Positions 745-29,241 of a DNA stretch of 64,000 nt are shown piece after piece. The notes under the pieces were generated by a model. That model did no database searches. It had not been told where the DNA came from and saw only the letters and a program-made list of their open reading frames with translations. The stretch lies in NCBI RefSeq assembly GCF_054482595.1, contig NZ_CM137008.1; one strand, 5' to 3'. Made by a program: the position numbers and the translations under genes. Within the stretch, counting starts at the first letter, position 1. Every line of letters begins with the position of its first letter.

Positions 745-1078
745 GTCTGAAGTTTTTAACTGGATCCCCCGCGAGGGGATGGAGACGACACGAAAGCCAT
801 CTGTTATTACGGTAAAGTTCGGTGACGGATATGAACAGCGACGGGCTGGTGGTCTGAATGCAGATCTGAAAACGTTTAAACCGGTATTTCGTGTCACGGA
901 TGAATATTCCCGTGCCGCGCTGGACAGTTTTTTATCCCGTCATGCCGGGGTTCGTGCTTTTTTGTGGCGTCCGCCAAAACACAACAGGACTGTCCGGGTT
1001 GTCTGCAGGGAGTGGAGCATTTCGGATAATGCCATGTATACCGATTTTAACTGTACCTTTGAAGAGGTCACTCACTGA
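737..1078 (+). CDS. M: Minor tail protein M
   Basis: Translation resembles lambda gpM; a GTG at 737 with GGAGG 8 nt upstream overlaps the H stop; the ATG at 692 in the ORF track would add an N-terminal extension inside H. Confidence 0.8.
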   Translation: MPESEVFNWIPREGMETTRKPSVITVKFGDGYEQRRAGGLNADLKTFKPVFRVTDEYSRAALDSFLSRHAGVRAFLWRPPKHNRTVRVVCREWSISDNAMYTDFNCTFEEVTH

Positions 1079-1776
1079 TGCAGGATATACAGCAGGAAAC
1101 ACTCAATGAGTGCACTAAAACGGAGCAATCCGCGCTGGTCGTGCTCTGGGAAATTGATCTGACAGAGGTCGGCGGAGATCGTTATTTCTTCTGTAATGAG
1201 CAGAACGAAAAAGGTGAACCAGTCACCTGGCAGGGGCGGCAGTATCAGGCCTATCCCATTCAGGGAAGTGGATTTGAGATGAACGGCAAAGGAGCCAGTG
1301 CAAGGCCAACGCTGAAAGTCTCTAATCTGCACGGCATGGTCACCGGGATGGCGGAAGACCTGCAGAGTCTGGTCGGCGGAACGGTGGTCAGGCGTAAGGT
1401 TTACGCCCGTTTTCTGGATGTGGTGAACTTCGTCAACGGAAACAGCGAAGCCGATCCGGAGCAGGAGGTGATCAGCCGCTGGCGCATCGAGCAGTGCAGC
1501 GAACTGAGCGCGGTGAGTGCCTCTTTTGTACTGTCCACGCCGACGGAAACGGATGGTGCTGTTTTTCCGGGACGTACCATGCTGGCCAACACCTGCACCT
1601 GGACCTATCGCGGTGATGAGTGCGGTTATCACGGTCCGGCGGTTGCGGATGAATATGACCAGCCGACGTCCGATATCACGAAGGATAAATGCAGCAAATG
1701 CCTGAGTGGTTGTAAGTTCCGCAATAACGTCGGCAACTTTGGCGGCTTCCTTTCCATTAACAAACTTTCGCAGTAA
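1078..1776 (+). CDS. L: Minor tail protein L
   Basis: 232-aa ORF resembling lambda gpL; its ATG overlaps the M stop (TGATG). Confidence 0.9.
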   Translation: MQDIQQETLNECTKTEQSALVVLWEIDLTEVGGDRYFFCNEQNEKGEPVTWQGRQYQAYPIQGSGFEMNGKGASARPTLKVSNLHGMVTGMAEDLQSLVGGTVVRRKVYARFLDVVNFVNGNSEADPEQEVISRWRIEQCSELSAVSASFVLSTPTETDGAVFPGRTMLANTCTWTYRGDECGYHGPAVADEYDQPTSDITKDKCSKCLSGCKFRNNVGNFGGFLSINKLSQ

Positions 1777-1781
1777 ATCCC

Positions 1782-2525
1782 ATGACAGAGACAGAATCAG
1801 CGATTCTGGCGCACGCCCGGCGATGTGCGCCAGCGGAGTCGTGCGGCTTCGTGGTGAGAACGCCGGAGGGGGAAAGATATTTTCCCTGCGTGAATATCTC
1901 CGGTGAGCCGGAGGATTATTTCCGGATGTCGCCTGAGGACTGGCTGCAGGCAGAGATGCAGGGTGAGATTGTGGCGCTGGTCCACAGCCACCCCGGTGGT
2001 CTGCCCTGGCTGAGTGAGGCTGACCGGCGGCTGCAGGTGCAGAGTGATTTGCCGTGGTGGCTGGTCTGCCGGGGTGAGATTCATAAATTCCGCTGTGTGC
2101 CGCATCTCACCGGGCGGCGCTTTGAGCACGGGGTGACGGACTGTTACACGCTGTTCCGGGATGCTTACCATCTGGCGGGGATTGAGATGCCGGATTTTCA
2201 TCGTGAGGATGACTGGTGGCGTAACGGCCAGAATCTCTATCTTGACAATATGGAGGCGACTGGTTTTTACCGTGTCGCACTGACAGAGGCGCAGCCGGGC
2301 GATGTGCTGCTGTGCTGTTTTGGTTCATCGGTGCCGAATCATGCCGCCATTTACTGCGGCGACGGCGAGCTGCTGCACCATATTCCTGAACAACTGAGCA
2401 AACGAGAGAGGTATACCGACAAATGGCAGCGACGCACACACTCCCTCTGGCGTCACCGGGCATGGCACGCATCTGCCTTTACGGGAATTTACAACGATTT
2501 GGCCGCCGCATCGACCTTCGTGTGA
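1782..2525 (+). CDS. K: Tail tip assembly protein K (predicted peptidase fold)
   Basis: 247-aa ORF resembling lambda gpK, including an HSHP motif. Confidence 0.9.
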   Translation: MTETESAILAHARRCAPAESCGFVVRTPEGERYFPCVNISGEPEDYFRMSPEDWLQAEMQGEIVALVHSHPGGLPWLSEADRRLQVQSDLPWWLVCRGEIHKFRCVPHLTGRRFEHGVTDCYTLFRDAYHLAGIEMPDFHREDDWWRNGQNLYLDNMEATGFYRVALTEAQPGDVLLCCFGSSVPNHAAIYCGDGELLHHIPEQLSKRERYTDKWQRRTHSLWRHRAWHASAFTGIYNDLAAASTFV

Positions 2526-3070
2526 AAACGGGGGCCGAAGCCATCCGGGCGCTGGCCATGCAGATCCCGGCGTTTCGTCAGAAACTGAGTGACGGCTGGT
2601 ATCAGGTACGGATTGCCGGGCGTGATGCAGGTGAAACCGAATTGTCTGCCCGTCTTAATGAGCCGCTGGCAAATGGTGCCGTGATCCACATCGTTCCGCG
2701 TCTGGAGGGGGCCAAAAGTGGCGGTGTGTTTCAGGCGGTGCTGGGTGCGGCGCTGATTGCGGTGGCATGGTGGAACCCTGTGGGCTGGCTGGGGGCCGCG
2801 GCTGTATCGGGTATGTATGCAGCAGGGGCCAGTATGATCCTGGGTGGTGTGGCGCAGATGCTGGCACCGAAAGCCAGGACGCCCACGGCAGCCAGTACAG
2901 ATAACGGCAAACAGAACACGTATTTCTCGTCACTGGATAACATGGTTGCCCAGGGCAATGTTCTGCCCGTTCTGTACGGTGAAATGCGTGTGGGGTCGCG
3001 GGTGGTATCTCAGGAGATCAGCACGGCAGATGAAGGTGATGGTGGTCAGGTTGTGGTGATTGGTCGCTGA
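2423..3070 (+). CDS. I: Tail tip assembly protein I
   Basis: 215-aa ORF resembling lambda gpI (MAATHTLPLASPGMARICLYG...); overlaps the 3' end of K in another frame. Confidence 0.85.
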   Translation: MAATHTLPLASPGMARICLYGNLQRFGRRIDLRVKTGAEAIRALAMQIPAFRQKLSDGWYQVRIAGRDAGETELSARLNEPLANGAVIHIVPRLEGAKSGGVFQAVLGAALIAVAWWNPVGWLGAAAVSGMYAAGASMILGGVAQMLAPKARTPTAASTDNGKQNTYFSSLDNMVAQGNVLPVLYGEMRVGSRVVSQEISTADEGDGGQVVVIGR

Positions 3071-3089
3071 TGAAAAATGTTTTATGTGA

Positions 3090-3118
3090 AACCGCCTCCG
3101 GGCGGTTTTGTCGTTTAT
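3090..3118 (+). terminator. Hairpin with interrupted T-tract between I and J; possible partial terminator
   Basis: ccgcc-tccg-ggcgg stem-loop followed by ttttgtcgttt. Confidence 0.35.
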
Positions 3119-3130
3119 GGAGCGTGAGGA

Positions 3131-6100
3131 ATGGGTAAAGGCAGCAGTAAGGGGCATACCCCGCGCGAAGCGAAGGACAACCTGAAGTCCACGCAGTTGC
3201 TGAGTGTGATTGATGCCATCAGCGAAGGTCCGGTTGAAGGTCCGGTGGATGGATTAAAAAGCGTGCTGCTGAACAGTACGCCGGTGCTGGACAGCGAGGG
3301 GAATACCAATATCTCCGGCGTCACGGTGGTGTTCCGGGCAGGCGAGCAGGAGCAGACACCGCCGGAGGGATTTGAATCCTCCGGCTCCGAGACGGTGCTG
3401 GGTACGGAAGTGAAATATGACACGCCGATCACCCGGACCATCACGTCTGCAAACATCGACCGTCTGCGTTTTACCTTCGGCGTGCAGGCACTGGTGGAAA
3501 CCACCTCAAAGGGGGACAGGAATCCGTCGGAAGTCCGCCTGCTGGTTCAGATCCAGCGTAATGGTGGCTGGGTGACGGAAAAAGACATCACCATTAAGGG
3601 CAAAACCACCTCGCAGTATCTGGCCTCGGTGGTGGTGGGTAACCTGCCGCCGCGCCCGTTTAATATCCGGATGCGCAGGATGACGCCGGACAGCACCACA
3701 GACCAGCTGCAGAACAAAACGCTCTGGTCGTCATACACCGAAATCATCGATGTGAAACAGTGCTACCCGAACACGGCACTGGTCGGCGTGCAGGTGGATT
3801 CGGAGCAGTTCGGCAGCCAGCAGGTGAGCCGTAATTATCATCTTCGCGGGCGCATTCTGCAGGTGCCGTCGAACTATAACCCGCAGACGCGGCAATACAG
3901 CGGTATCTGGGACGGAACGTTAAAACCGGCATACAGCAACAACATGGCCTGGTGTCTGTGGGATATGCTGACCCACCCGCGCTACGGCATGGGGAAACGT
4001 CTTGGTGCGGCGGATGTGGATAAATGGGCGCTGTATGTCATCGGCCAGTACTGCGACCAGTCAGTGCCGGACGGCTTTGGCGGCACGGAGCCGCGCATCA
4101 CCTGTAATGCGTACCTGACCACACAGCGCAAGGCGTGGGATGTGCTCAGTGATTTCTGCTCGGCGATGCGCTGTATGCCGGTATGGAACGGGCAGACGCT
4201 GACGTTCGTGCAGGACCGACCGTCGGATAAGGTGTGGACCTATAACCGCAGTAATGTGGTGATGCCGGATGATGGCGCGCCGTTCCGCTACAGCTTCAGC
4301 GCCCTGAAGGACCGCCATAATGCCGTTGAGGTGAACTGGATTGACCCGGACAACGGTTGGGAGACAGCGACAGAGCTTGTGGAGGACACACAGGCCATTG
4401 CCCGTTACGGTCGTAACGTCACGAAGATGGATGCCTTTGGCTGTACCAGCCGTGGGCAGGCGCACCGCGCCGGGCTGTGGCTGATTAAAACGGAACTGCT
4501 GGAGACGCAGACCGTGGATTTCAGCGTGGGTGCTGAAGGGCTTCGCCATGTACCGGGCGATGTCATTGAAATCTGCGATGATGACTATGCCGGTATCAGC
4601 ACCGGTGGTCGCGTGCTGGCGGTGAACAGCCAGACCCGGACGCTGACGCTCGACCGTGAAATCACGCTGCCATCCTCCGGTACCACGCTGATAAGCCTGG
4701 TTGACGGAAGTGGTAATCCGGTCAGCGTGGAGGTCCAGTCCGTCACCGACGGCGTGAAGGTGAAAGTGAGCCGGGTTCCTGACGGCGTTGCCGAATACAG
4801 CGTGTGGGGACTGAAGCTGCCGACGCTGCGCCAGCGCCTGTTCCGCTGTGTGAGTATCCGTGAGAATGACGACGGTACGTATGCCATCACCGCCGTGCAG
4901 CATGTACCGGCAAAAGAGGCCATCGTGGATAACGGGGCGCACTTTGACGGCGACCAGAGCGGAACGGTAAACGGTGTCACGCCGCCAGCAGTACAGCACC
5001 TGACCGCAGAAGTCACCACAGACAGCGGGGAATATCAGGTGCTGGCGCGCTGGGACACGCCGAAGGTGGTGAAGGGCGTGAGCTTCCTGCTTCGCCTGAC
5101 CGTGGCAGCGGATGACGGCAGTGAGCGGCTGGTCAGCACGGCCCGGACGACGGAAACCACATACCGCTTCACGCAGCTGGCGCTGGGGAATTACAGGCTG
5201 ACAGTCCGGGCGGTAAATGCGTGGGGACAGCAGGGCGATCCGGCATCGGTATCGTTCCGGATTGCCGCACCGGCAGCACCGTCGCGGATTGAGCTGACGC
5301 CGGGCTATTTTCAGATAACCGCCACGCCGCATCTTGCGGTTTATGATCCGACGGTACAGTTTGAGTTCTGGTTCTCGGAAAAACGGATTGCTGATATCAG
5401 GCAGGTTGAAACCAGCGCGCGTTATCTTGGTACGGCGCTGTACTGGATAGCCGCCAGTATCAATATCAAACCGGGCCATGATTATTATTTTTACGTTCGC
5501 AGTGTGAACACCGTTGGCAAATCGCCATTCGTGGAGGCTGTTGGTCAGCCGAGTGATGATGCGTCCGGCTATCTGGATTTTTTCAAAGGAGAGATAGGGA
5601 AAACCCATCTGGCTCAGGAGCTGTGGACGCAGATTGATAACGGTCAGCTTGCGCCTGACCTGACTGAAATCAGGACGTCCATAACGGATGTCAGCAATGA
5701 AATCACCCAGACCGTTAACAAGAAACTGGAAGACCAGAGTGCAGCGATCCAGCAGATACAGAAGGTTCAGGTTGATACAAATAATAACCTGAACAGCATG
5801 TGGGCAGTGAAGCTGCAGCAGATGCAGGACGGACGCCTTTATATTGCGGGTATCGGTGCCGGTATTGAGAACACCCCCGACGGCATGCAGAGTCAGGTGC
5901 TGCTGGCTGCAGACCGGGTGGCATTTATTAACCCGGCGAATGGTAACACCACTCCTGCACTGGTCACACAGGGCGGACAGACGTTTATTAATGAGGCGCT
6001 GATCAAGTTCCTTATTGCTCCCACGATTACCAGTGGTGGCAATCCTCCGGCATTCTCCCTGACACCTGACGGAAAGCTGACTGCTAAAAATGCGGATATC

Positions 6101-6607
6101 AGTGGCAGTGTGAATGCGAACGCCGGGGCGCTCAACAACGTCACGATTAATGAGAGCTGTACTATTAAGGGGATGCTTGATGCTAACCAGGTGCGTGGTG
6201 ATTTTGTAAAAACGACAGGGCATCGATTTCCGCACCCCGGAGAATACCCACAGGGTTCACTTACCGTTCATATTAAGGACGATCATGCCTTTGACAGGCA
6301 GATTATAATTCAACCAATCATGTACGGTGCACCACCATATTTTAGTAAAAATGATGGCGCTAATATCTACGATACCTGCAGATTAATTGTGCGCAAAAAT
6401 GGCAATGTAATCTATGACAAATCCACTAGTGGTTCGAAAAGGACAACAGTCGTGTACAGCAATATCATTGATATGCCAGTGGGGGACGGAGATGTAATAT
6501 TAACATTTGAAGTTCAGTCGAGCGGCAGTGGAGATCCCAGAACATGGATCAGTGATTTAATGGTCTCGGTAACGAAAAAAGCCGCATCCGGTATCAGTAT
6601 CAGTTGA
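3131..6607 (+). CDS. J: Tail tip host-specificity protein J with a divergent C-terminal receptor-binding region
   Basis: 1158-aa ORF resembling lambda gpJ over most of its length; the last ~120 codons are visibly AT-rich and unlike lambda J as I recall it. Confidence 0.9.
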
Positions 6608-6626
6608 AATTTTTATAACCCCAATA

Positions 6627-6653
6627 CGGGCGCCAGAAATGGCGCCTTTTTTA
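6627..6653 (+). terminator. Rho-independent terminator downstream of J
   Basis: gggcgcc-agaaat-ggcgcc hairpin followed by tttttt. Confidence 0.65.
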
Positions 6654-6676
6654 TTGCAGAAAAGCGAGAGGTAATT

Positions 6677-7276
6677 ATGCGTAAAGTTTGTGCAGCCATT
6701 TTTTCCGCAGCCATCTGTCTGGCCGTATCCGGTGCGCCTGCATGGGCGTCTGAACATCAGTCCACACTGAGCGCAGGGTATCTTCATGCCCGTACGAACG
6801 CACCCGGCAGCGATAATCTGAACGGGATTAACGTGAAATACCGTTATGAGTTTACGGACACACTGGGGCTGGTGACGTCATTCAGCTATGCAGGAGACAA
6901 GAATCGCCAGCTTACCCGTTACAGCGATACCCGCTGGCATGAAGATTCAGTGCGTAACCGCTGGTTCAGCGTGATGGCGGGGCCCTCTGTGCGCGTGAAT
7001 GAATGGTTCAGTGCGTATGCGATGGCGGGCGTGGCTTACAGCCGTGTGTCGACTTTTTCCGGGGATTATCTGCAGGTGACCGACAGCAAGGGGAAAACGC
7101 ACGATGTGCTGACCGGCAGTGATGACGGTCGCCACAGCAACACGTCTCTGGCGTGGGGGGCTGGCGTGCAGTTTAACCCGACCGAATCCGTGGCCATTGA
7201 TATTGCTTATGAAGGCTCCGGCAGTGGCGACTGGCGCACTGACGGTTTCATCGTGGGCGTCGGTTATAAGTTCTGA
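6677..7276 (+). CDS. lom: Lom outer-membrane protein (Ail/Lom family; prophage accessory gene)
   Basis: 199-aa ORF with signal peptide, resembling lambda Lom; RBS gagagg upstream. Confidence 0.9.
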
Positions 7277-7301
7277 TTAGCCAGGTAACACAGTGTTATG
7301 A

Positions 7302-7331
7302 CAGCCCGCCGGTTCAGGCGGGCTTTTTTGT
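7302..7331 (+). terminator. Rho-independent terminator downstream of lom
   Basis: agcccgcc-ggttcag-gcgggct hairpin followed by tttttt. Confidence 0.65.
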
Positions 7332-7334
7332 GGG

Positions 7335-10259
7335 GTGAATATGGCAGTAAAGATTTCAGGTGTACTGAAAGACGGCACAGGAAAACCGGTTCAGAACTGC
7401 ACAATCCAGCTGAAAGCAAAACGTAACAGCACCACGGTGGTGGTGAACACGCTGGCCTCAGAAAATCCGGATGAAGCCGGGCGTTACAGCATGGACGTTG
7501 AGTACGGTCAGTACAGCGTTATTCTGTTGGTGGAAGGATTCCCGCCGTCACATGCCGGGACCATCACCGTGTATGAAGATTCCCAACCCGGTACGCTGAA
7601 TGATTTTCTCGGTGCCATGACGGAGGATGATGCCCGTCCGGAGGCTCTGCGCCGTTTTGAACTGATGGTGGAAGAGGTGACGCGTAACGCGTCCGCGGTG
7701 GCACAGAACACGGCAGCCGCGAAGAAGTCAGCCAGTGATGCCGGCACATCTGCCCGTGAGGCGGCAACCCATGCGACTGATGCTGCAGGCTCAGCGCGTG
7801 CAGCCAGCACGTCAGCCGGACAGGCCGCGACTTCGGCTCAGGAGGCGTCTTCCAGCGCAGGAACGGCATCAACAAAGGCCACTGAAGCATCAAAAAGTGC
7901 TGCCGCTGCAGAGTCCTCAAAAAGCGCGGCGGCCACCAGTGCCGGTGCGGCGAAAACGTCAGAAACGAATGCTGCAGCGTCACAAAAATCAGCAGCCACT
8001 TCTGCATCCACTGCGACGACGAAAGCGTCAGAAGCCGCCACTTCAGCCAGAGATGCGGCGGCCTCCAAAGAGGCGGCAAAATCATCAGAAACGAACGCCT
8101 CCACAAGCGCCAGCAGTGCAGCCTCCTCGGCAACGGCGGCAGGAAATTCCGTGAAGGCGGCAAAAACGTCCGAGACGAATGCCAGGTCTTCTGAAACGGC
8201 AGCGGAACAGAGCGCCTCAGCTGCGGCAGACTCTGAGACAGCAGCTGCATCATCGGCCCGTGAGGCGTCCATTAAGGCAGAGGAGGCAGCAGTCAGTGCC
8301 ACCGCCGCCGGAAAATCGGCAGAAAGCGCCGCATCATCCGCTTCAACAGCCACAACGAAGGCTGGCGAAGCCACTGAACAGGCCAGCGCAGCAGCGAGGT
8401 CTGCTTCCGCAGCGAAGACATCCGAAACGAACGCGAAAGCGTCGGAAACCAGCGCAGAATCCTCAAAAACGGCTGCCGCATCGTCCGCCAGTTCGGCGGC
8501 GTCATCGGCATCATCTGCGTCTGCTTCAAAAGATGAGGCGACCAGACAGGCGTCAGCAGCGAGGGGCAGCGCCACGACGGCATCCACGAAGGCGACAGAG
8601 GCTGCTGGCAGTGCGGCAGCGGCAGCACAGAGCAAAAGTACGGCGGAATCCGCGGCAACGCGCGCCGAGACAGCAGCAAAACGGGCAGAGGATATTGCAT
8701 CCGCCGTGGCGCTTGAGGATGCGAGCACGACGAAAAAGGGGATAGTACAGCTCAGCAGTGCGACCAACAGCACTTCCGAGTCACAGGCGGCAACGCCAAA
8801 AGCCGTTAAGGCCGCGTATGACCTGGCTAACGGGAAATACACCGCACAGGATGCAACGACAGCACAGAAAGGGATAGTTCAGCTCAGCAGTGCGACTAAC
8901 AGCACTTCCGAGTCACAGGCGGCAACGCCAAAAGCCGTTAAGGCCGCGTATGACCTGGCTAACGGGAAATACACCGCACAGGACGCTACGACAGCACAAA
9001 AAGGAATTGTCCAGCTCAGTAGTGCAACCAACAGCACATCTGAAACGCTTGCTGCGACACCGAAAGCAGTGAAAGCAGCTAATGACAATGCGAATGGTCG
9101 GGTACCTTCTGCCCGTAAGGTGAATGGTAAGGCGCTTTCAGCGGATATAACACTGACGCCGAAAGATATTGGTACGCTTAACTCAACAACAATGTCATTC
9201 AGCGGTGGTGCTGGTTGGTTCAAATTAGCAACGGTAACCATGCCACAGGCGAGTTCTGTTGTTTCAATTACGTTGATTGGTGGCGCTGGATTTAACGTGG
9301 GGTCACCTCAACAGGCAGGTATATCTGAACTTGTTTTACGTGCAGGTAATGGTAATCCGAAGGGGATTACTGGTGCTTTATGGCAGCGCACATCGACAGG
9401 GTTTACAAATTTTGCCTGGGTCAATACATCTGGTGATACTTACGATATTTACGTTGCAATCGGAAATTATGCGACTGGTGTAAATATTCAATGGGATTAT
9501 ACCAGTAATGCCAGCGTGACGATTCATACGTCACCAGCATATTCTGCTAATAAGCCGGAAGGGTTAACGGACGGTACAGTTTATTCACTCTATACGCCAT
9601 CAGAGCAGTTTTATCCGCCTGGCGCACCAATCCCGTGGCCATCAGATACCGTTCCGTCTGGCTATGCCCTGATGCAGGGGCAGACTTTTGACAAATCTGC
9701 CTACCCGAAACTTGCAGCCGCTTATCCGTCAGGCGTGATCCCTGATATGCGTGGCTGGACGATTAAGGGCAAGCCCGCCAGTGGTCGTGCCGTATTATCT
9801 CAGGAACAGGACGGCATTAAATCGCATACCCACAGTGCCAGTGCATCCAGTACGGATTTGGGGACGAAAACCACATCGTCGTTTGATTACGGCACTAAAT
9901 CCACGAATAACACCGGAGCGCACACCCATAGTGTCAGTGGTACGGCTGCTTCTGCAGGGGCACATACACACACGGTTGCCTGTTACCCATCTGGCAATAC
10001 CGAGCAGGGCGATAAAGCCCTCAAAGGTGCGTCTCGTGCAGGCTCGAGTACTGGCACATCGTCAGCCGGAGCGCATACCCACCCGGTGTCAGGTACTGCT
10101 GCAAGTGCAGGTGCACACGCGCATACTGTCGGTATTGGTGCTCATACGCACTCCGTTGCGATTGGCTCACACGGACACACCATCACCGTTAACGCTGCTG
10201 GTAACGCGGAAAACACCGTCAAAAACATCGCATTTAACTATATTGTGAGGCTTGCATAA
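7335..10259 (+). CDS. stf: Side tail fibre protein (Stf-like) with Ala/Ser/Thr-rich shaft, 44-aa tandem repeats and His-rich C-terminal repeats
   Basis: 974-aa ORF; N-terminus resembles lambda Stf; long low-complexity A/S/T region; three 44-aa repeats; C-terminal GAHTHxV repeats. Confidence 0.85.
8739..9134 (+). repeat. Three tandem copies of a 132-bp (44-codon) unit inside stf; copies 1 and 2 nearly identical, copy 3 diverged
   Basis: Units begin at 8741, 8873 and 9005 (gatagtacagctcagcagtg... / gatagttcagctcagcagtg... / gaattgtccagctcagtagtg...); each encodes [25 protein letters not shown]. Confidence 0.85.
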
Positions 10260-10843
10260 TGGCATTCAGAATGAGTGAACAACCACGGACCATAACAATT
10301 TATAATCTGCTGGCCGGAACTAATGAATTTATTGGTGAAGGTGACGCATACATTCCGCCTCATACAGGTCTGCCAGCAAACAGTACCGATATTGCACCGC
10401 CAGATATTCCGGCTGGCTTCGTGGCTGTTTTCAACAGTGATGAGGCATCGTGGCATCTTGTTGAAGACCATCGGGGTAAAACAGTTTATGACGTGGCATC
10501 AGGGAACGCGTTATTTATTTCTGAACTCGGCTCATTACCGGAAAATGTTACCTGGTTATCCCCGGCAGGGGAGTTTCAGAAGTGGAACGGCACAGCCTGG
10601 GTGAAGGATACGGAAGCAGAAAAACTGTTCCGGATCCGGGAGGCGGAAGAAACAAAAAACAGCCTGATGCAGGTAGCCAGTGAGCATATAGCGCCGCTTC
10701 AGGATGCTGTAGATCTGGAGATCGCAACGGAGGAAGAAAACTCGTTGCTGGAAGCCTGGAAAAAGTATCGGGTGTTGCTGAACCGTGTTGACACATCAAC
10801 TGCACCTGATATTGAGTGGCCGGAAGAACCAGACACAATGTAA
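10259..10843 (+). CDS. tfa: Tail fibre assembly protein (Tfa)
   Basis: 194-aa ORF resembling lambda Tfa; its ATG overlaps the stf stop (TAATG). Confidence 0.9.
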
Positions 10844-11189
10844 GCGAAAAAGAAAAACCGCAGACACGACGTATGCAGGACGTGCTGCGGTTGGCTGGTG
10901 AACTTTCGATAGTGCGAGTATTGAATGATTTCCAGCCGTTACCGATTTTATATAACTGCAGTGGAATTATTCAACACACAGGCAAAACGGAATAAGCTGA
11001 GAAAAAAGCGTGCTTTCCCAATCTGGGGCAAATCACGTCTGAATGACACCTGAAAACAGGTGGTGGACTCAAGACGGCTTGGAATATTCTTCTTTAATGT
11101 TATGTAATTCATTGATTTTTCGTGTACGATTTTAAGACATTTATTCCAAGAAAAATTTTTAACTCTTTGATTTTTCGACTCTGTATCAT

Positions 11190-11251
11190 CGGTCTCGAAA
11201 ACCGGAGTAGGGGCAACTCTACCGGGGGTTCAAATCCCCCTCTCTCCGCCA
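11190..11251 (+). other. serU: 3' fragment (62 nt) of a tRNA-Ser gene: anticodon arm, variable arm, T-arm and 3' acceptor strand ending CCA; read as the prophage attR core
   Basis: cggtctcgaaaaccggagtaggggcaactctaccgggggttcaaatccccctctctccgcca matches the 3' two-thirds of E. coli tRNA-Ser(CGA) as I recall it; the upstream sequence does not match the 5' acceptor/D-arm. Confidence 0.8.
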
Positions 11252-11820
11252 CTTTATCAATGACTTATCTCCCGACTTCCCGCCTTGCTTTTCCTAAACA
11301 GAACAATCGTAGAATATTCTTGAAGGGTTAGATCGTCACTGTTTTCTGTTCGATACTGTGACATTCAGCACTTGATTCGCTATGGATCTGACAGGAAGCT
11401 TTCGAGCGAAAATGTGCAGTTATTCAGTCGTTTTCTTATCGCTCACCATTATTCTTTTAGACATTCATCCTATGAAACTGCCGCAAAGTTGGTGGTGGGA
11501 ACTGAAGTTGCGTAGAGAAGGGTTCAATAATTGAGTCAAAAAAGGAACGCGGCCGTCAGATTAAAGCCGCGGGACAAAGTCCATAATTTCCAAGAGTTGT
11601 TGAATTTCCCAGCTTTTTTGAAAGCCTTTGTATCATACTAACAAGTAAAAAAGGTTTAAATACCAAAATTAACCTGTATTTTTGATAAGTCTTACCATTG
11701 TACGATTTACACAGTTTCTGCTCCTCCTTGTTGATAGTGGAAAGGGTGCATTGTGCACTTGCGTAAACATTTATGACGCGTTGATGTCCATGGTTCACAT
11801 TTCCTTGTCAGGGGATCGAC

Positions 11821-12351
11821 TTATTTGCGGCGAGGCATCATTCGTAACAGAGTATTATCTTTCTGAATGTAGTGATGAAAGAGTGCTGCGCCAGCGTGAG
11901 CTGCGATTAAAAAGTAACCTATATTTGCCCAGGTTTCGTGAATATTTTTTATCAGTGCTTTAATTTCGCTGTTTGGGGTAACAAAGGGAGACACATTGAA
12001 ACCAAGGAAACTCCACGATTTTCCACTGTAAGCCATCAAAGCAATCCCCAGCAGAGGAAGTGCAAGGAAGGTTATATAAAGCATGATGTGCATTAGCGAA
12101 GCCGCTTTCATTTGCCAGGCAGGTGGCGGTGGCACAATAGAAGGATCACTATAACGGTGTTTTATAATCAGGCGTGAAAACATTAACACCCAAACGAATA
12201 TACCCGCATTGTAATGTGTTTCTCGCATCAGCAGATAAGTACTACTACCTTTAGGAAACCAGCCACGGAGTTCCATCGCGGCATAGGTTATTGCAACGAA
12301 AAGCAGCGTTATCCAATGTAAATAAATTTGAGTTTTTGAGAATCGGTTCAT
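11821..12351 (-). CDS. yodB: Cytochrome b561 family protein
   Basis: Translation from the internal ATG (MNRFSKTQIYLHW...) gives 176 aa; caggag RBS upstream; multiple TM segments with conserved His. Confidence 0.85.
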   Translation of the reverse strand: MNRFSKTQIYLHWITLLFVAITYAAMELRGWFPKGSSTYLLMRETHYNAGIFVWVLMFSRLIIKHRYSDPSIVPPPPAWQMKAASLMHIMLYITFLALPLLGIALMAYSGKSWSFLGFNVSPFVTPNSEIKALIKNIHETWANIGYFLIAAHAGAALFHHYIQKDNTLLRMMPRRK

Positions 12352-12693
12352 TTTTGTAGCTCCTGTAATTTTTACAGTCAAGCTATCCCACGAACCTTAA
12401 AAATTCCTTATACAGATGTGGTTTTAAGAATTTGTTATTTAAAAAATTGATAGTGCACATTGTAACCAGCCAATATAAGCAATGGCGTGAGCACAGGTAT
12501 CTTTCTCTGTTGGCCGTATTGTGTATGGAATCCGTTATTGGTTAACTCAATGCGGGTTAGCTTATTAATATACAGACACGTCATAGTGATGAGCGTGTCT
12601 GTAGCTAGCTTGCGTTCAGTGGCGTTTGTGGATGGACCAGTGGCAGTTATGATGACTTACTAAAGCGGCATCGAGGCGTTATCATGAGAATAC

Positions 12694-13344
12694 TCAATGA
12701 GACATCATTTCCTCGACCACTTCTTCGCTACTCAACTGATATGGATAATACGTTGGCCAGTTTTCCATTTCATTTAATAAAGATTGCTGTGAATCATTAC
12801 CCATAAAAATGTGAAAATGAGATGATTTTCGTGGTGCAATTATATGATCGCTAAATTGTATATATTTAGGGGCTTTGCTTTCAGGATCTTTACATTCGAA
12901 TAAGTAACGAACGCCTTTCTTGCCTGATTTATAGGTGAGTATTTTGTATCCATCGTAATCATATTTACAGGATGTTGTTTCATTATTTCTATGGAATTCA
13001 ACAATGCCGTCCTCAATGCCAATCATCTCGATATCTGTTGCATAACCTTTGTGATAATAATCTTTAATTTCAGCAAATGTTTTAGTTTTATCTGCATCCG
13101 CTTTCTTCTGAAAGACGGGGTCAAGTTTGCCACTTTGCAGTAAAGGATAAACGGATTGCCAGACTCCATCCCAGTCACTGAGCGTTCGGTTTTGTACATT
13201 GGCATCATCAAAAACACCATTAGCAGCTTTTTGTTCGACCTCTGTTAAGGGTTTGCCGTGTGAGTGATGACCATGCGAAAAGGCAGGAGCGCTAACAATA
13301 AAGACACCTAAAGCAACAGCCAGTTTGTGAAGACGAATCGCCAA
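12694..13344 (-). CDS. zinT: Periplasmic zinc/cadmium-binding protein ZinT
   Basis: His-rich N-terminus after the signal peptide (HGHHSHG); likely TTG start with GGAGG 7 nt upstream gives 216 aa; the ORF-track ATG at 13365 adds 7 residues. Confidence 0.9.
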
Positions 13345-13376
13345 AACAGTTTCCTCCAGAGTCATTGTATATGATG

Positions 13377-13400
13377 TGTAATGTTATATTGTAACATATG
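13377..13400. promoter_or_regulatory. Candidate Zur box in the zinT promoter
   Basis: Palindrome ATGTTATATTGTAACAT about 35-55 bp upstream of the zinT start; fits the Zur operator pattern as I recall it. Confidence 0.5.
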
Positions 13401-13530
13401 GCAAAATGCAACAACTCTTAGGAGATGAGAGCATAGTTTTCTCAGGTGTACTTATCTATCTTATTGAAATAAAATGAATTATATTGATAATTTGAGGTTG
13501 ATGACAAACGAAACATAATCTGATGTGATC

Positions 13531-13572
13531 TGCGTAGGCCGGATAGGGCGCTCGCGCCGCATCCGGCAGGGA
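13531..13572. repeat. REP-type extragenic palindrome
   Basis: gtaggccggatagggcgctcgcgccgcatccggca in the zinT-msrQ intergenic region. Confidence 0.6.
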
Positions 13573-13600
13573 TAACGCGTACTTTGTCGGCAATATGAAG

Positions 13601-14236
13601 TTATACAGATAATTTGTTGTGAACCTGCTTGCGTAACCGGTTAAAAAGGGAACGCAACTTCTTATACCGTAAGGCTAAAAGCAGTACAGCCAGCCCAGCG
13701 TAGATGAGCGGCTGCGGTGAAATAATCTTCACTGACCACAGATAATGTATTGGGGCCAGGATCGCGACAAGATAGACGAAATTATGCAACTGTTGCCAGT
13801 GCTTGCCGAGTTTTCGCTGCATCGCCTGGGTTGAAGTAAACGCTAAAGCAAGCAAAATAACCCAGCTGATAATTCCTAACGTTAAATAAGGCCGGGTAAT
13901 TAACTCCTTGCCTAATAACGCCAGATTATTCACGCCCAGCTCCAGCAATGCGTAACTGGTTAAATGCAGTGTCGCCCAGGCAAAGCACCATAAGCCTAAC
14001 AGGCGGCGAGTGCGTATCAATAACGGCTGTTTTGCGTAGCGTGCCAGAGGTGTGATTAACAAGGTCGCCAGCAAAAATTTCAGTGCAGTGCGACCGGTAA
14101 AATGCTGAATATCTTTCACCGGATCGGCACCCAGTCCACCGTGATTGATCGCCCAGACCAGCCAGAGAAACGGCAACAATCCGGCAAGATGCAGGCTAAC
14201 TTTCAGCCATGTCACCTGTTTTGCTGTCAGACGCAT
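13601..14236 (-). CDS. msrQ: Methionine sulfoxide reductase haem-binding membrane subunit MsrQ
   Basis: 211-aa multi-TM ORF immediately downstream of msrP in the same operon. Confidence 0.9.
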
Positions 14237-15247
<1,011 letters not shown>

Positions 15248-15349
15248 TCACACTTTTTTGTCGTTAGCCAGCAAGAGCCGTTTACTGTTAATCTGTCAGG
15301 GAGTGTCCTCCCTAACAGTAGCAGAGATCTGCTTTTACATATTTATGCA

Positions 15350-15763
15350 TTAACTGCCACGATAGGTTGAATACCCATATTGGCTAAGTAATAAAGGCAC
15401 ATGATAATGCTCGTTCACTTTATTAATATGAAATTCAACGGGGATCTCAGGGAAGAAACTTTCAAGATTTTGTTTCTTGAAATAGTCCCCGGTTTTAAAT
15501 ACGACACGGTAATCGCCCGTAGTTGCAGTTTGCTCGGGCCACAGTGCCTTAATTCGTCCATCCTTATCTGTTTTGGCGGTATTAAGTTGTAACCAGCCGT
15601 TGTCCGCTTTCTTTTCAAGAGTGACTGTCACGTCGGCAGCGGGTTTTCCTGTTTGCTGGTTCAAAATGTGCACACTAAGAATGTTTTGTTGTGCAGCATA
15701 GACCAAAGAAGGTAATGAAAATGCAGCCGTTACTACGGAGAGTACTAAATAACGCTTTAACAT
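15350..15763 (-). CDS. hiuH: 5-hydroxyisourate hydrolase (transthyretin-like periplasmic protein)
   Basis: 137-aa ORF with signal peptide and C-terminal YRGS motif. Confidence 0.9.
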
Positions 15764-15895
15764 GTTTATATCCTTGTCATGTGAATGAGTTTTGAGGATA
15801 GCGAAAAAGCGTCCACGGTAACCTTACAGCAGCATTACAATTTTGTAATGAACCAGGTTGTTTCTATAACATATGATTTATGGCATATTATTTTC

Positions 15896-16567
15896 ATGAA
15901 GATTTTACTTATTGAAGATAATCAAAGGACCCAGGAGTGGGTAACGCAGGGGCTTTCCGAAGCGGGTTATGTCATTGATGCCGTTTCTGATGGCAGAGAT
16001 GGGCTCTATCTTGCGCTTAAGGATGATTATGCATTGATCATTCTGGATATTATGCTTCCGGGTATGGATGGCTGGCAGATCTTACAAACGTTAAGAACAG
16101 CAAAGCAAACTCCTGTTATTTGCCTTACTGCAAGAGATTCTGTCGATGACAGAGTCAGAGGGCTGGACAGTGGGGCAAATGATTATCTGGTAAAACCTTT
16201 TTCATTTTCTGAGTTGCTGGCAAGGGTTCGGGCACAATTAAGGCAACATCACGCTTTGAATTCAACATTAGAAATCAGTGGCTTAAGAATGGACTCTGTT
16301 AGTCAAAGTGTGAGCAGGGACAATATCAGTATTACACTGACGCGCAAGGAGTTTCAGTTACTTTGGCTACTGGCCTCCAGAGCTGGCGAGATTATCCCCA
16401 GAACGGTTATTGCGAGTGAAATTTGGGGAATCAACTTTGATAGTGATACCAATACGGTGGACGTCGCCATTCGCAGGCTCCGCGCAAAAGTTGATGATCC
16501 TTTTCCTGAAAAGCTAATCGCCACAATCCGGGGGATGGGCTATTCATTCGTAACGGTAAAAAAATAA
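15896..16567 (+). CDS. hprR: OmpR-family response regulator HprR
   Basis: Internal ATG (MKILLIEDNQ...) gives 223 aa; receiver plus winged-helix domains; the ORF-track start at 15785 is probably an upstream extension. Confidence 0.9.
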   Translation: MKILLIEDNQRTQEWVTQGLSEAGYVIDAVSDGRDGLYLALKDDYALIILDIMLPGMDGWQILQTLRTAKQTPVICLTARDSVDDRVRGLDSGANDYLVKPFSFSELLARVRAQLRQHHALNSTLEISGLRMDSVSQSVSRDNISITLTRKEFQLLWLLASRAGEIIPRTVIASEIWGINFDSDTNTVDVAIRRLRAKVDDPFPEKLIATIRGMGYSFVTVKK

Positions 16568-17925
16568 TGAAAAGATTATCTATAACCGTCCGTTTAACCT
16601 TGCTTTTTATATTGCTGCTGTCTGTTGCTGGCGTTGGAATTGTATGGACTCTCTATAATGGCTTGGCAAGTGAGTTGAAATGGCGCGATGATACAACACT
16701 CATTAACCGGACAGCGCAGATCAAGCAGTTGTTAATTGATGGGGTAAATCCAGATACGTTACCTGTGTACTTTAACCGGATGATGGATGTTAGTCAGGAT
16801 ATCTTGATCATTCATGGTGATAGCATCAACAAAATTGTTAACCGGACGAATGTCAGTGATGACATGTTAAATAACATACCTGCTACTGAGACAATCAGCG
16901 CAGCTGGCATTTACAGAAGCATTATTAATGATACAGAGATAGATGCTTTACGAATTAATATTGATGAAGTTTCGCCATCATTAACGGTTACTGTGGCTAA
17001 ATTGGCTTCAGCCAGACATAACATGCTTGAACAGTATAAAATTAATAGCATTATAATTTGCATTGTCGCCATTGTACTTTGCTCAGTATTAAGTCCGCTG
17101 TTAATCAGAACGGGATTACGAGAGATCAAAAAGTTGAGTGGTGTAACGGAAGCGCTGAATTATAACGATAGCCGGGAGCCTGTTGAGGTTAGCGCATTAC
17201 CGAGAGAACTAAAACCTCTTGGGCAGGCGTTGAATAAAATGCATCATGCTTTAGTCAAAGATTTTGAGCGTCTAAGTCAGTTTGCTGACGATCTCGCTCA
17301 TGAACTTAGAACGCCCATTAATGCATTACTGGGTCAGAATCAGGTTACGCTCAGTCAAACCAGAAGTATCGCTGAATATAAAAAAACAATTGCCGGTAAC
17401 ATTGAAGAGCTGGAAAATATTTCGCGGTTAACAGAGAACATACTGTTTCTTGCCCGGGCAGATAAAAACAATGTTTTGGTGAAACTGGACTCACTTTTTC
17501 TCAATAAGGAAGTCGAAAATTTGTTGGATTATCTTGAATACCTTTCAGACGAGAAAGAGATTTGCTTTAAGGTCGAGTGCAATCAGCAAATCTTTGCGGA
17601 TAAAATTTTACTGCAACGAATGTTATCGAATCTTATTGTTAATGCCATTAGATATTCACCAGAAAAATCGCGCATTCATATAACCAGTTTTCTTGATACC
17701 AACGGCTATCTTAATATTGATATCGCCAGTCCTGGAACGAAAATTAATGAGCCTGAAAAACTCTTCCGTAGATTTTGGCGGGGAGATAATTCGCGTCATT
17801 CCGAAGGTCAGGGACTTGGTCTTTCTTTAGTCAAAGCGATTGCCGAATTGCATGGGGGAAGTGCTACGTATCACTATTTTAATAAGCATAATGTGTTCCG
17901 AATTACGTTACCGCAAAGAAATTAA
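16567..17925 (+). CDS. hprS: Sensor histidine kinase HprS
   Basis: 452-aa ORF with two TM segments and H-box (ELRTPINAL); start overlaps the hprR stop. Confidence 0.9.
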   Translation: MKRLSITVRLTLLFILLLSVAGVGIVWTLYNGLASELKWRDDTTLINRTAQIKQLLIDGVNPDTLPVYFNRMMDVSQDILIIHGDSINKIVNRTNVSDDMLNNIPATETISAAGIYRSIINDTEIDALRINIDEVSPSLTVTVAKLASARHNMLEQYKINSIIICIVAIVLCSVLSPLLIRTGLREIKKLSGVTEALNYNDSREPVEVSALPRELKPLGQALNKMHHALVKDFERLSQFADDLAHELRTPINALLGQNQVTLSQTRSIAEYKKTIAGNIEELENISRLTENILFLARADKNNVLVKLDSLFLNKEVENLLDYLEYLSDEKEICFKVECNQQIFADKILLQRMLSNLIVNAIRYSPEKSRIHITSFLDTNGYLNIDIASPGTKINEPEKLFRRFWRGDNSRHSEGQGLGLSLVKAIAELHGGSATYHYFNKHNVFRITLPQRN

Positions 17926-17959
17926 CATAGGGCTTCAGTACGCCATAAATCAACCATGA

Positions 17960-18000
17960 AAAAACGCAGCCACGTCGTGAGTATTAACGTGGCTGCGATT
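17960..18000. terminator. Hairpin between convergent hprS and hchA
   Basis: gcagccacg...cgtggctgc inverted repeat. Confidence 0.4.
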
Positions 18001-18032
18001 GATTATGCGCTTACATTCATACGTAACAGGGA

Positions 18033-18884
18033 TTAACCCGCATAAGCTGCCAGCATTTCCTGCGCCGCCAGTTTACCCAACGCAATCGCTGCGAAAGGAC
18101 TGTCGCCGGTGAGAACTTTACGGTCCTTATGTACTCGCCCGGTGATGTCGTCATTAATAATGTTCATGCCCATTTTCTTCAGCTCTTCGCCGAAGTACCA
18201 GGTGAGATGACCCGGCATATAGCCTATCTCTGGCGTTTGTTTGTCTGCGGCGTCTGGGAATGCGCAAATGGAATAACCATTCAGTGGGTTATCGCCGTGG
18301 CGAAGCGCCAGAAAAGCCGCCGGGCCGTGGCAAAGGGAGATAACAAAACGGTCATTTTTGATTGCCCACTGTAAAGCGGCAGCTACGTCCTGGCTTTCTG
18401 GTAAACCAATAAGTGCGCCATGACCACCAGGAACAAAGATTGCTGCATATTCGCTATCAGCGTTGAGGCTGGCAACAACATCCGCGAGTTTCTTCGGATT
18501 GCGGAACAACGATTTATGCTGCTCAAAGAATGGCATTACTTTTTCATCTTTGTGCGGCATAGCCCAGTATTCAAACTTGGTCATCAGACCGGAAATGGTC
18601 GCCACTTCGAATTCGAAACCTGCAGCATGGAGATGATACAACGGCAGCAACGTTTCAATCGGATGGTTACCGGTCGAGAACAGTTTTCCGTTATCGGTCG
18701 GCAAATAACGTTCGTCCGCGGCGATCACCAGAATTTTATGTTTACCGCGATAAGGTTTTGGATAGTCCACGCCATCAAGATCAGAGACAGGACTGGTATA
18801 TTGGCTAAGCGAATATTCTGAAGGGAAGAATGCATTATCTTCAGCAATATCGACCTGCGGATTTTTACTTGTTTGAACAGTCAT
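18033..18884 (-). CDS. hchA: Hsp31 glyoxalase III / protein deglycase (DJ-1/PfpI family)
   Basis: 283-aa ORF recognisably Hsp31 (MTVQTSKNPQVDIAEDNAFFPSEYSLSQYTSPVSDLDG...). Confidence 0.9.
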   Translation of the reverse strand: MTVQTSKNPQVDIAEDNAFFPSEYSLSQYTSPVSDLDGVDYPKPYRGKHKILVIAADERYLPTDNGKLFSTGNHPIETLLPLYHLHAAGFEFEVATISGLMTKFEYWAMPHKDEKVMPFFEQHKSLFRNPKKLADVVASLNADSEYAAIFVPGGHGALIGLPESQDVAAALQWAIKNDRFVISLCHGPAAFLALRHGDNPLNGYSICAFPDAADKQTPEIGYMPGHLTWYFGEELKKMGMNIINDDITGRVHKDRKVLTGDSPFAAIALGKLAAQEMLAAYAG

Positions 18885-19394
18885 AGTGTATTCCTTATTG
18901 TTGCTTAGTTAGGGTAGTCACTATATTTGCGACTGAGCTGGTCGCTATTTTTAACCAGGCTGGAAAATTGAGTCAATATATCGAAAGCGGTAGTCGGCGG
19001 GTGTAAGTATGTAATGATGATGCTGCACTGGTGTTGAATATTATTCACGCCAAATTTTCCTTATTGAGTAACGTCGTCGCAAGTGGCCTCAATGATTTTA
19101 GACCATTATCAGAGGTACGGGGTGGCTGGGAGAGATTTAGTGCTGTGGAATATTGTGGTGCTGATGAATATTTATATCGCGGATTGGTAGAGAAAAATCT
19201 TATTTCATGCACTATTTTTGCAAATATTTCTATATGGGAAGCGTGTTTGTTATGGATTAATTCATAAAGAAATGCATTTGGGTGTTGGCTTGAAGAGTCG
19301 CTGGTTGATGTTGTTGTGCCAGGAGGGGCAGGGTAAGGTGCTGTATCGATATGCTTCGGCAATTGCGTGTGCCGCAGATGGAGATGAAATGTCA

Positions 19395-19433
19395 ATAAAA
19401 AAGCCTGAGTTCGATGAGGGACGAACTCAGGCT
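19395..19433 (-). terminator. Rho-independent terminator of the porin gene
   Basis: agcctgagttcg-(loop)-cgaactcaggct hairpin; on the minus strand it is followed by a T-run (A-run 19397..19402 on the plus strand). Confidence 0.6.
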
Positions 19434-19475
19434 AGTGTTCAGTTTTACAGTAACACGCCGCGGCGCGTTGGCTGA

Positions 19476-20663
19476 TTAGAACTGGTAGACTAAGCCCACA
19501 GCCACGATATCATCGGTAGCGATGCCGTTTTCTTTGTAGAAGTCGTCGTCGTTGTCCAGCAGGTTGATTTTGTAATCAACATAAGTGGACATGTTTTTGT
19601 TGAAGTAGTAGGTCATACCAATATCAACATATTTAACCAGATCTTTGTTGGTGTAATGATGATTACCCTGGCTGTCGAAGTTATCACTATTTACACCGCC
19701 TAAATCCTTACCTTTAGATTGCAGGTAAGCGATGGACGGGCGCAGGCCAAAGTCGAACTGATACTGAGCAACAACTTCAAAGTTTTGGGTTTTGTTAGCG
19801 ATGGCATCAGCATCACCGTAACCAGTCATGTTACGGGTTTCAGCATACATAGCTGCTAAGTAAACGTTATTAGCGTCATATTTAGCACCAACGGTCCATG
19901 CTTCTGCTGTTTCACCGCCAGCAGTTGCATCGAAGCGATCTCCATAACGAATGTTATGCAAACCTTTGTGAACCTGATTGTCAGTACGGTCAGAATTAGA
20001 ATATGCAGCACCCAGACTTAAACCGAAGTCGAAGTCATAGGAAGTGGACATACCGAAGCCGTCGCCGTTCTCTTTAGCTAACTTACGGCCATTACCGTTA
20101 CCAGAACCTTCCTGACCGAATAATCCATCATCTTCATTATTACCCTGATATTGCAAAGCAAAGTTCAAGCCATCGACCTGACCAAAGAAGCCATTGTTAC
20201 GGTAGGTTGCAACACCATTAGCACGACCGTTCATGAAGTTGTCAGCGCCAGCATAGGTATCGCCACCAAATTCTGGCAGCATATCGGTCCATGCTTCTAC
20301 GTCATATACGACACCGTAGTTACGACCATAGTCGAAAGTACCATTCTGACCAAAGCCTAAACCTGCAAATGCCAGACGCGTTGCGGTATTACCCTTGTCG
20401 CTTTCAGGACCGTTTGCGCCAATGTTAAATTCCCACTGACCATAACCAGTGAATTGATCAGCGATCTGAGTTTCACCTTTGAAACCGATACGGGCATATG
20501 ACATGTCGCCATCGCTGCCAGAATCATCAGAGAAGTAGTGCAGACCCACTACTTTTCCGTACAAATCCAGTTTATTACCATCTTTATTATAGACTTCAGC
20601 CGCATTTGCTGCGCCAGCAACTAATAATGCCGGGACCAGCATTGCCAGAACTTTTCTTTTCAT
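19476..20663 (-). CDS. yedS: General-diffusion porin (OmpC/OmpF family), intact
   Basis: Signal peptide [37 protein letters not shown] start and terminal F typical of porins; position next to hchA matches yedS; the ORF-track start at 20693 is an upstream extension. Confidence 0.8.
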
Positions 20664-21292
20664 TATGTATTCCCTTGTGATTATAATCTTCATGAATATA
20701 TCAATAAGTGCCGTTATCCAAAAAAAAGCACATTTGGATACTATTCTATGAAGTTCATTTTATTTTAAAGATTACATGTAACAAATGTATTTAAAAGATT
20801 TCAAAATGTTTCTAATCTATTTAATATAATTTAGAATTATGAATTCTAAATATAAATATTCATGAAAATTATAAATGTATATCAATATGTTATGAGTTGA
20901 GCGGAAGCATAGGGGGTATCAATGATTGTTGCGCCAAACGGCTGGTGTGATCACGCGCACATTAATGAAGGCATAAAAAAAAGCCGGCATCATGCCGGCC
21001 CAAAAAATATAAACAAGACGATAAAAGGCTAATAACGGAGGCATCATGACACAGAAAAATAAAAAGGTATAATTGTATTCAGTGCTAATATATTGATTAA
21101 ATGAATTAATAAAGCCGATCTCAAAGATAAATAAAATCGCTCAAAACGATTTTTCCTGTATTCACTGCCGTTGCGCAAAAATTATCTATTTGTTCAAAAA
21201 ATGAGTGAGTCTTGACTGGCTCATCCAATGTGGAAAAATGTGACTTTTATCACATAATAGTACTAAGTCTGAATTTTCCGGGTTATCTCAAA

Positions 21293-21616
21293 ATGGAATA
21301 CGGTTCGACAAAGATGGAAGAGAGACTCTCTCGCAGCCCTGGTGGCAAACTGGCTTTGTGGGCTTTCTATACATGGTGTGGCTATTTCGTCTGGGCAATG
21401 GCGCGTTACATCTGGGCAATGGCGCGTTACATCTGGGTGATGAGCCGGATCCCCGATGCCCCCGTGTCGGGATTTGAAAGCGATTTAGGCTCTACCGCGG
21501 GAAAGTGGTTAGGGGCACTGGTCGGATTTTTATTTATGGCTCTGGTCGGGGCATTGTTAGGCAGCATTGCCTGGTACACCCGACCTCGTCCCGCACGTAG
21601 CAGACGCTATGAATAA
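21293..21616 (+). CDS. yedR: Small inner-membrane protein YedR; carries a 21-bp in-frame tandem duplication
   Basis: ORF containing MEYGSTKMEERLSRSPGGKLALWAFYTWCGYFVWAMARYIWAMARYIWVMSRIP...; start codon uncertain (ORF track begins at 21212). Confidence 0.7.
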   Translation: MEYGSTKMEERLSRSPGGKLALWAFYTWCGYFVWAMARYIWAMARYIWVMSRIPDAPVSGFESDLGSTAGKWLGALVGFLFMALVGALLGSIAWYTRPRPARSRRYE

Positions 21617-21655
21617 AAACTGCTAAGGTGGCGACTCTTTGGCAACGGAGCGCGT

Positions 21656-22351
21656 ATGGACTTACAACACTGGCAGGCACAGTTCGAAAACTGGTTGAAA
21701 AACCATCATCAGCACCAGGACGCGGCCCATGACGTGTGTCATTTTCGCCGCGTCTGGGCTACGGCACAGAAGCTGGCGGCAGATGACGATGTCGATATGC
21801 TGGTGATTTTAACCGCCTGTTATTTTCACGATATTGTGAGCCTGGCGAAAAATCATCCGCAAAGGCAGCGTTCTTCAATCCTGGCGGCAGAAGAGACGCG
21901 TCGCCTGCTCCGTGAAGAGTTCGAGCAATTTCCGGCGGAGAAAATCGAGGCCGTTTGTCATGCCATTGCCGCTCACAGTTTCAGCGCGCAAATCGCCCCC
22001 TTAACAACGGAAGCTAAAATTGTCCAGGATGCGGATCGGCTGGAAGCCCTGGGGGCGATTGGCCTGGCGCGCGTGTTTGCCGTTTCAGGGGCATTGGGCG
22101 TGGCGCTGTTTGATGGTGAAGATCCGTTCGCACAGCATCGCCCGCTTGATGATAAACGCTACGCGCTGGATCATTTCCAGACTAAGTTGCTGAAGCTACC
22201 GCAAACCATGCAAACCGCAAGAGGCAAGCAGCTGGCGCAGCACAACGCGCATTTTTTAGTCGAGTTTATGGCGAAGCTCAGTGCCGAACTGGCGGGGGAG
22301 AATGAAGGTGTCGATCACAAGGTGATAGATGCGTTTTCACCCGCGGGATAA
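21656..22351 (+). CDS. yedJ: HD-domain phosphohydrolase
   Basis: 231-aa ORF with an HD motif (YFHDIV). Confidence 0.85.
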
Positions 22352-22417
22352 GCGCGTGGCCCTAAATGGCTGTAATTATGTTAACCTGTCGGCCATCTCA
22401 GATGGCCGGTTAAATCT

Positions 22418-26717: not shown

Positions 26718-29241
<2,524 letters not shown>

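Follow-up and report, generated by a model that had tools for sequence, protein, structure and literature searches.

A very probable attR junction of a lambdoid prophage in the tRNA-Ser gene serU

The segment 10844..11820 of the window, i.e. of the whole stretch of 64,000 nucleotides analysed here, is very probably the attR junction of a lambdoid prophage inserted in serU, the gene of tRNA-Ser(CGA), with early genes of Qin/Rac-like type and head and terminase genes of HK97/P27-like type. It is an ordinary right-hand prophage end, at a site and in an arrangement that are already known, and it alters nothing about tRNA-targeted integration. The anatomy of the four attachment sites (attR, attL, attB and attP) and the crossover interval are established by comparison of related loci. 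The left prophage end of the source strain itself would resemble that of SM107, as judged from relatives. The features on which the description relies are given below, with strand and supporting evidence.

7335..10259, plus strand: stf, side tail fibre, 974 aa, the last large late gene (open reading frame; annotation in SM107 and Santai)
10259..10843, plus strand: tfa, tail fibre assembly, 194 aa, the final prophage gene ahead of the junction (Pfam Caudo_TAP, E = 2.2e-45)
10844..11189, plus strand: tfa-to-core interval, the left (P) arm of attP, 346 bp, with no cargo genes (match to attP contig)
10856..10892, plus strand: stable hairpin where the conserved attP module begins on the left (MFE -19.4 kcal/mol, z = -3.35)
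11078..11086, plus strand: candidate arm-type integrase-binding motif CTTGGAATA, P1-like (exact 9-mer)
11142..11150, minus strand: candidate arm-type motif CTTGGAATA, inverted, P2-like (exact 9-mer)
11190..11251, plus strand: attR core repeat, displaced and non-functional 3' part of serU tRNA-Ser(CGA) (identity to K-12 serU; no tRNA call)
11190..11208, plus strand: strand-exchange segment, anticodon stem-loop CGGT-CTCGAAA-ACCGG-AGT (comparison of attR, attL, attB and attP)
11252..11820, no strand: chromosomal serU-yodB spacer (B' side), 569 bp (near-identity to K-12)
11821..12381, minus strand: yodB, cytochrome b561 homologue, the host gene nearest to the prophage on its right (open reading frame; annotated yodB or cytochrome b in related records)

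The core of the junction, 11190..11251, reads CGGTCTCGAAAACCGGAGTAGGGGCAACTCTACCGGGGGTTCAAATCCCCCTCTCTCCGCCA. A preliminary description of this DNA had matched these 62 nt to the 3' part of tRNA-Ser(CGA) and had stated that the sequence upstream does not continue the tRNA. Both statements are borne out, since 62 of 62 positions are identical to K-12 serU, and the identity is lost leftward of the core, first at 11189 (T instead of the C of serU). In alignment to the unoccupied K-12 locus, the fragment starts at base two of the anticodon stem and reaches the terminal CCA. It thus has no acceptor 5' strand, no D arm and no first base of the anticodon stem, and it does not qualify as a functional tRNA. 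The same description had named a complete tRNA at this place as the result that would speak against it, and ARAGORN calls none anywhere in the 64-kb window. An Rfam scan of 9000..13000 likewise returned no tRNA hit, and the fragment gave only sub-threshold partial matches; those to Plastid-psbl-rps4, tmRNA and sX4 were rejected, as they reflect the T arm alone. A 28-mer covering the T arm and the acceptor end is present in one copy in the window, against 0 expected from 100 shuffles. In GenBank, record KU052038 already bears the annotation of a tRNA-Ser pseudogene over the same 62 nt, beside yodB.

To the right of the core lies the host chromosome. The unoccupied site, attB, is represented in K-12 MG1655 by the order mtfA-serU-spacer-yodB, which has no insert and is bordered by the same sequences as the prophage on its outer sides. 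The comparison with such an unoccupied locus, proposed in the preliminary description, finds K-12 collinear with the window from 11190 rightward, with 2 differences over 11190..11820. Given these 2 differences and a K-12 gene order that goes on to the right of yodB with zinT, msrQ and msrP, the 569 bp between the core and yodB are ordinary chromosomal spacer. Their length had been put at ~570 bp, which is accurate; the term 'AT-rich' applied to them is only moderately appropriate, with a GC content of 40.2% vs 49.7% for the whole window. Some part of the junction query is found in 5425 of 5426 complete E. coli genomes. In the spacer, a GC-rich hairpin (CGCGGC ... GCCGCG with a 12-nt loop) followed by TTCCTTTTTTGA is visible by eye on the minus strand at 11536..11571, just past 11529, where the homology of phage ev099 to the chromosome ends. 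This hairpin could be a terminator for transcription from yodB; a consensus scan did not call it.

Two positions within the core tell host from phage. A and T stand at 11209 and 11220 in attR (the window) and attB (K-12), G and C in attL (SM107 and EC7518) and attP (IMG/VR contigs L011 and L012). The two bases pair in the stem of the variable arm, so that the phage copy represents a compensatory change from A-T to G-C. The 62 nt in the window are therefore what was originally the 3' part of the host gene, in agreement with their earlier reading as a displaced core of host origin, and the working serU at attL has received its 3' end from the phage. Because a phage-specific base stands at 11189 and a host-specific base at 11209, strand exchange took place within 11190..11208, that is in the anticodon stem-loop. 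If this enzyme behaves like other tyrosine recombinases, the overlap region is probably the 7-nt loop CTCGAAA, with the stem halves CGGT and ACCG as core-type binding sites.

The fourth site, attP, was predicted by joining the left flank in the window to the right flank in SM107, and an 82-nt pattern spanning the junction was searched for. The exact pattern is present in the two IMG/VR contigs, L011 and L012. The attP sought by the preliminary description is thus found contiguous, in silico and in relatives. Both contigs run from the last tail gene or cargo through P arm, core and P' arm to the same 341-aa int. In L012 (IMGVR_UViG_2531839668_000011), attP is internal to a 43.7-kb contig with the gene order of a virion. 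A search of a phage collection with the attL side gave two full hits, vB_EcoS-689R5 and vB_EcoM-606R7. They were rejected as free attP, being prophage predictions that include host mtfA and asnT, hence attL.

The far end of the prophage is seen in relatives. The window from 1 to 11251 is 100% identical to prophages of SM107 and of O157:H16 Santai, in both of which the leftward sequence leads to a DUF4224 gene, a tyrosine integrase, an intact 90-nt serU (ARAGORN, anticodon CGA) and mtfA. The core-to-core distance is 38,968 bp in both, which would place attL ~27.8 kb before the window start. The same two prophage ends occur in EC7518, 22,383 bp apart. Thus, the expectations that the complete tRNA and the integrase lie at the far end, outside the window, and that a second copy of the core occurs at a prophage-sized distance are realized in SM107, Santai and EC7518, i.e. 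in relatives of the source strain. EC7518 is a clear example of prophage decay at serU with both att ends kept. Comparison of its positions 43643..47303 with 26229..47694 of SM107 locates a ~16.6-kb deletion that covers the gene of the large terminase subunit, those after it and the N-terminal part of the tail fibre.

The junction is widespread. When it is counted as present if at least 80% of 10844..11820 is found, 541 of the 5426 complete E. coli genomes (~10%) hold it. None of these 5426 genomes is 100% identical over both the prophage and the host flank, and window 1..25000 reaches only 98.2% identity. Two further observations concern the prophage of SM107 and Santai. Its cro-like gene is flagged as frameshifted (16093..16336 in SM107, 35021..35264 in Santai), and four tRNA genes (Ile, Lys, Thr and Gly) lie downstream of the Q antiterminator, at 23501..23810 in SM107.

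The four sites are consistent with the following mechanism. Phage attP presents a 62-nt look-alike of the serU 3' part, with a P arm of ~335 bp on its left and a P' arm on its right that runs into the 3' end of int. The 341-aa tyrosine integrase would swap strands inside the anticodon stem-loop. After integration, serU would again be complete at attL, beside int, with its 5' part from the host and a phage 3' part that brings the compensatory G-C pair in the variable arm, and the host 3' part, stripped of its 5' half, would be left beside the tail-fibre end as 11190..11251. The CTTGGAATA motifs, two in the P arm and three in the P' arm, would be the likely arm-type sites for the N-terminal domain of the integrase, as in lambda.

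This assignment of the motifs is drawn from their distribution. Just 2 exact copies of CTTGGAATA exist in the 64-kb window, both in the P arm. In SM107, the P' arm of attL contains a tandem triple, made of two exact copies and one with a single mismatch, inside the 3' end of int. Over 50 kb of SM107, 4 exact copies were counted (plus one near copy), and those of SM107, like the 2 of the window, are all located ~130 bp or less from the core. All arm copies are conserved in the attP contigs L011 and L012. By this pattern, CTTGGAATA likely corresponds to the arm-type sites of a lambda-like heterobivalent integrase.

In SM107 the int ORF encodes 341 aa and lies 52 bp from serU (27 bp from the annotated integrase pseudogene), and the DUF4224 gene occupies the position expected for an excisionase. 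The protein contains the Pfam Phage_integrase domain (E = 1.7e-11) and SAM-like domains. Its residues 1-60 fall outside any domain and begin with MGRRR..LPPN.Y, a start that looks lambda Int-like by eye. The Pfam family Arm-DNA-bind_1 gives no hit above threshold in the serU integrase, and the lambda-type Int of ev099 scores 7e-33 with it. PGAP flags int as frameshifted in SM107 (9746..10796), EC7518 (25940..26990) and Santai (40561..41611). The 341-aa product retains the C-terminal region with the catalytic tyrosine, and its length is that of the dominant clusters (>1000 and >2000 members) and of the copies in the attP contigs, with homologues in Enterobacterales covering 329-346 aa. As far as can be read from sequence, int is probably intact and the flag an annotation artefact at the extreme C-terminus.

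On the prophage side, the junction is preceded by open lambdoid tail genes, namely part of the tape measure gene, M-, L-, K- and I-like genes, J, lom, stf and tfa. In the identical prophages of SM107 and Santai, stf is annotated as 'prophage tail fiber N-terminal domain-containing protein'. The 974-aa tail fibre (7335..10259) has a very long, low-complexity N-terminal half rich in Ala, Ser and Thr, and three tandem repeats of ~46 aa. The tfa coding sequence wholly includes a full-length match to Rfam RF02111 'IS009' at 10602..10800 on the plus strand (222 bits vs a gathering threshold of 117, E = 1.6e-55).

From tfa to the core, the distance had been estimated at ~350 bp and measures 346 bp, with a GC content of 39.3%. 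Homology to attP begins at ~10856, 13 bp past the tfa stop, which supports the earlier view that the accessory (b) region is nearly absent. Against the attP contig L012, the window shows 16 differences over ~10856..11189, and 18 over 10856..11251, the two core variants included. Since the 346 bp are almost entirely conserved attP left arm, this is a prophage without a b region, in which tfa runs directly into the left arm of attP. The first 107 bp past tfa (10844..10950) are also kept downstream of tfa in HK97, mEp460, HK106 and others. The hairpin at 10856..10892 keeps its outer stem CCGCAG/CTGCGG in L011 and L012, where inner bases differ; it has no T-run, and its role as a terminator is uncertain. 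A consensus scan of 10700..11900 found no intrinsic terminators and no excess of promoter-like sites over shuffles.

Upstream of the shared P arm, the content varies: tfa in the window, four NleG genes in L012, another tail fibre with an S74 chaperone in L011. The L012 segment, at 88..3011, consists of four paralogous ORFs of ~200 aa between the tail genes and the left arm of attP, and the two that were tested are the T3SS effector NleG (Pfam E ~2e-43). It is a cargo slot that stands empty in the prophage of the window.

The arrangement follows that of lambda, as known from the work of Landy, in which the late genes and tail fibre are followed by the b region where there is one, attP, int and a xis-like gene. 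The likeness extends to the presence of short repeats on both arms, two on P and three in tandem on P' in the serU phage, which suggests a heterobivalent integrase. Differences are that the serU core lies within a tRNA gene, whereas attB of lambda is intergenic between gal and bio, that the P' arm of the serU phage overlaps the end of int, unlike in lambda, and that the motif sequence and orientations are also distinct. A class of tRNA-gene integration with crossover in the anticodon loop was reportedly defined by Williams in 2002 in Nucleic Acids Res. The serU junction looks like a standard example of it, with no notable difference: the tRNA copy in attP spans the anticodon stem to the 3' end, the crossover region is a symmetric stem with a 7-nt loop, and the gene is restored by the phage copy.

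The closest known counterpart is SerU-LTIIb (KU052038), a partial prophage of E. coli strain 41, which shares with the window the tail-fibre genes, the short AT-rich P arm, the 62-nt pseudogene, the spacer and yodB. The two differ at 1 position over 11190..11820, and their P arms are ~95% identical. SerU-LTIIb is distinguished by a prophage body with LT-IIb toxin genes and other tail-fibre genes, and its record does not include the far end. Lambdoid or unclassified prophages at serU, an established insertion point for prophages and islands, are also described in STEC O145:H28 (PMC7067040) and O121:H19 (PMC8767318). PP_SE11-6, the serU prophage of SE11, has a 77-nt duplication (PMC2608844), which agrees with the 62 nt plus ~16 nt of partial similarity found here (78 bp, 91% identity). 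The serU prophages of STEC carry the T3SS effectors nleB, nleF and nleH-1 (PMC7067040), whereas that of the window has no cargo between tfa and attP.

A related junction is found in lambda-like phages. In ev099, mEp332 and PhiR70_1, a stretch that is 97.6-99% identical to window 10995..11529 takes in P arm, core and 278 bp of spacer. The matches lie at 24369..24903 in ev099 (NC_049953.1), from ~43622 in mEp332 (PV340541.1) and from ~46157 in PhiR70_1 (PV340577.1). Beyond the 278 bp of spacer, these phages continue with an AraC-like gene and IS fragments. For their own integration they use the attP core of lambda; in ev099 an exact copy of it, GCTTTTTTATACTAA, lies 74 bp from a lambda-type int, and the genome contains only one tRNA piece, with the host-type A and T. 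These properties of ev099 together indicate that the piece is a fossil attR in the b region, not an attachment site. On the same grounds (lambda attP core beside a lambda-type int and a single tRNA piece of host type), an att core extending 278 bp into the spacer was rejected.

How the fossil arose is less firmly settled, and the balance tips only slightly towards one account: the serU junction would have been kept in packaged phages as the fixed product of an aberrant excision, of the type that gives specialised transduction, later recombined onto a lambda backbone. Read in the opposite direction, the 278 bp that directly follow serU in all E. coli may be an ancient phage remnant, which fits the host-type bases less well. 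Most of the AraC/IS segment of ev099 is held by ~170 complete E. coli genomes, where such segments appear to be located in prophage b regions; the segment was not found beside serU in a chromosomal context. No description of the b-region content of ev099 or mEp332 was found in the literature searched.

The existence of such fossils raises the question whether the tRNA piece of the window could itself be internal to phage DNA, with the real prophage end further right, seeing that ev099, mEp332 and PhiR70_1 carry P arm, core and 278 bp of spacer internally. This is highly improbable. ev099 diverges past the equivalent of 11529, but in the window the full 569-bp spacer is followed by yodB, zinT and msrQ/msrP in K-12 order and at near-identity, and beyond 11251 no phage genes follow. 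Even less credence is due to a truncation of serU by an unrelated deletion or rearrangement that left a decayed tRNA pseudogene by chance beside a prophage. Nothing more than the bare fact of a partial tRNA speaks for it. The break falls exactly on the base where attP/attB identity begins on the left, relatives have an intact serU at the opposite prophage end, the same junction recurs in 541 genomes and a contiguous attP exists. To the extent that sequence data allow, this chance origin is already refuted.

The alternative with most weight accepts the junction as genuine and concerns the state of the prophage, which would be defective or locked in, with int, attL or essential genes lost or inactive and the 62 nt a frozen scar. 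It is unlikely, although several observations lend it some substance. PGAP flags a frameshift in int in the three relatives and in cro in SM107 and Santai, EC7518 keeps both ends in a prophage of 22.4 kb instead of 39.0 kb after loss of the stretch from terminase to the start of the tail fibre, and the left prophage end of the source strain lies outside the window. On the other side, the flagged int retains its catalytic-tyrosine region at 341 aa, a length matching the dominant clusters, the attP contigs and the homologues of 329-346 aa. In addition, every tail gene in window 1..10843 is open, and contigs in attP form exist for the same phage family.

For annotation, the preferred reading, a junction at attR, sets the right prophage boundary to the base, as phage DNA stops within 11190..11208. 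The 62-nt tRNA piece is to be seen as a scar, not a gene, and the serU-yodB spacer as ordinary host DNA. Beside attR, serU prophages of pathogenic E. coli often bear effectors or toxins, and this prophage is without such cargo. The only mildly new item is the presence of a fossil attR, with its host flank, in circulating lambda-like phages.
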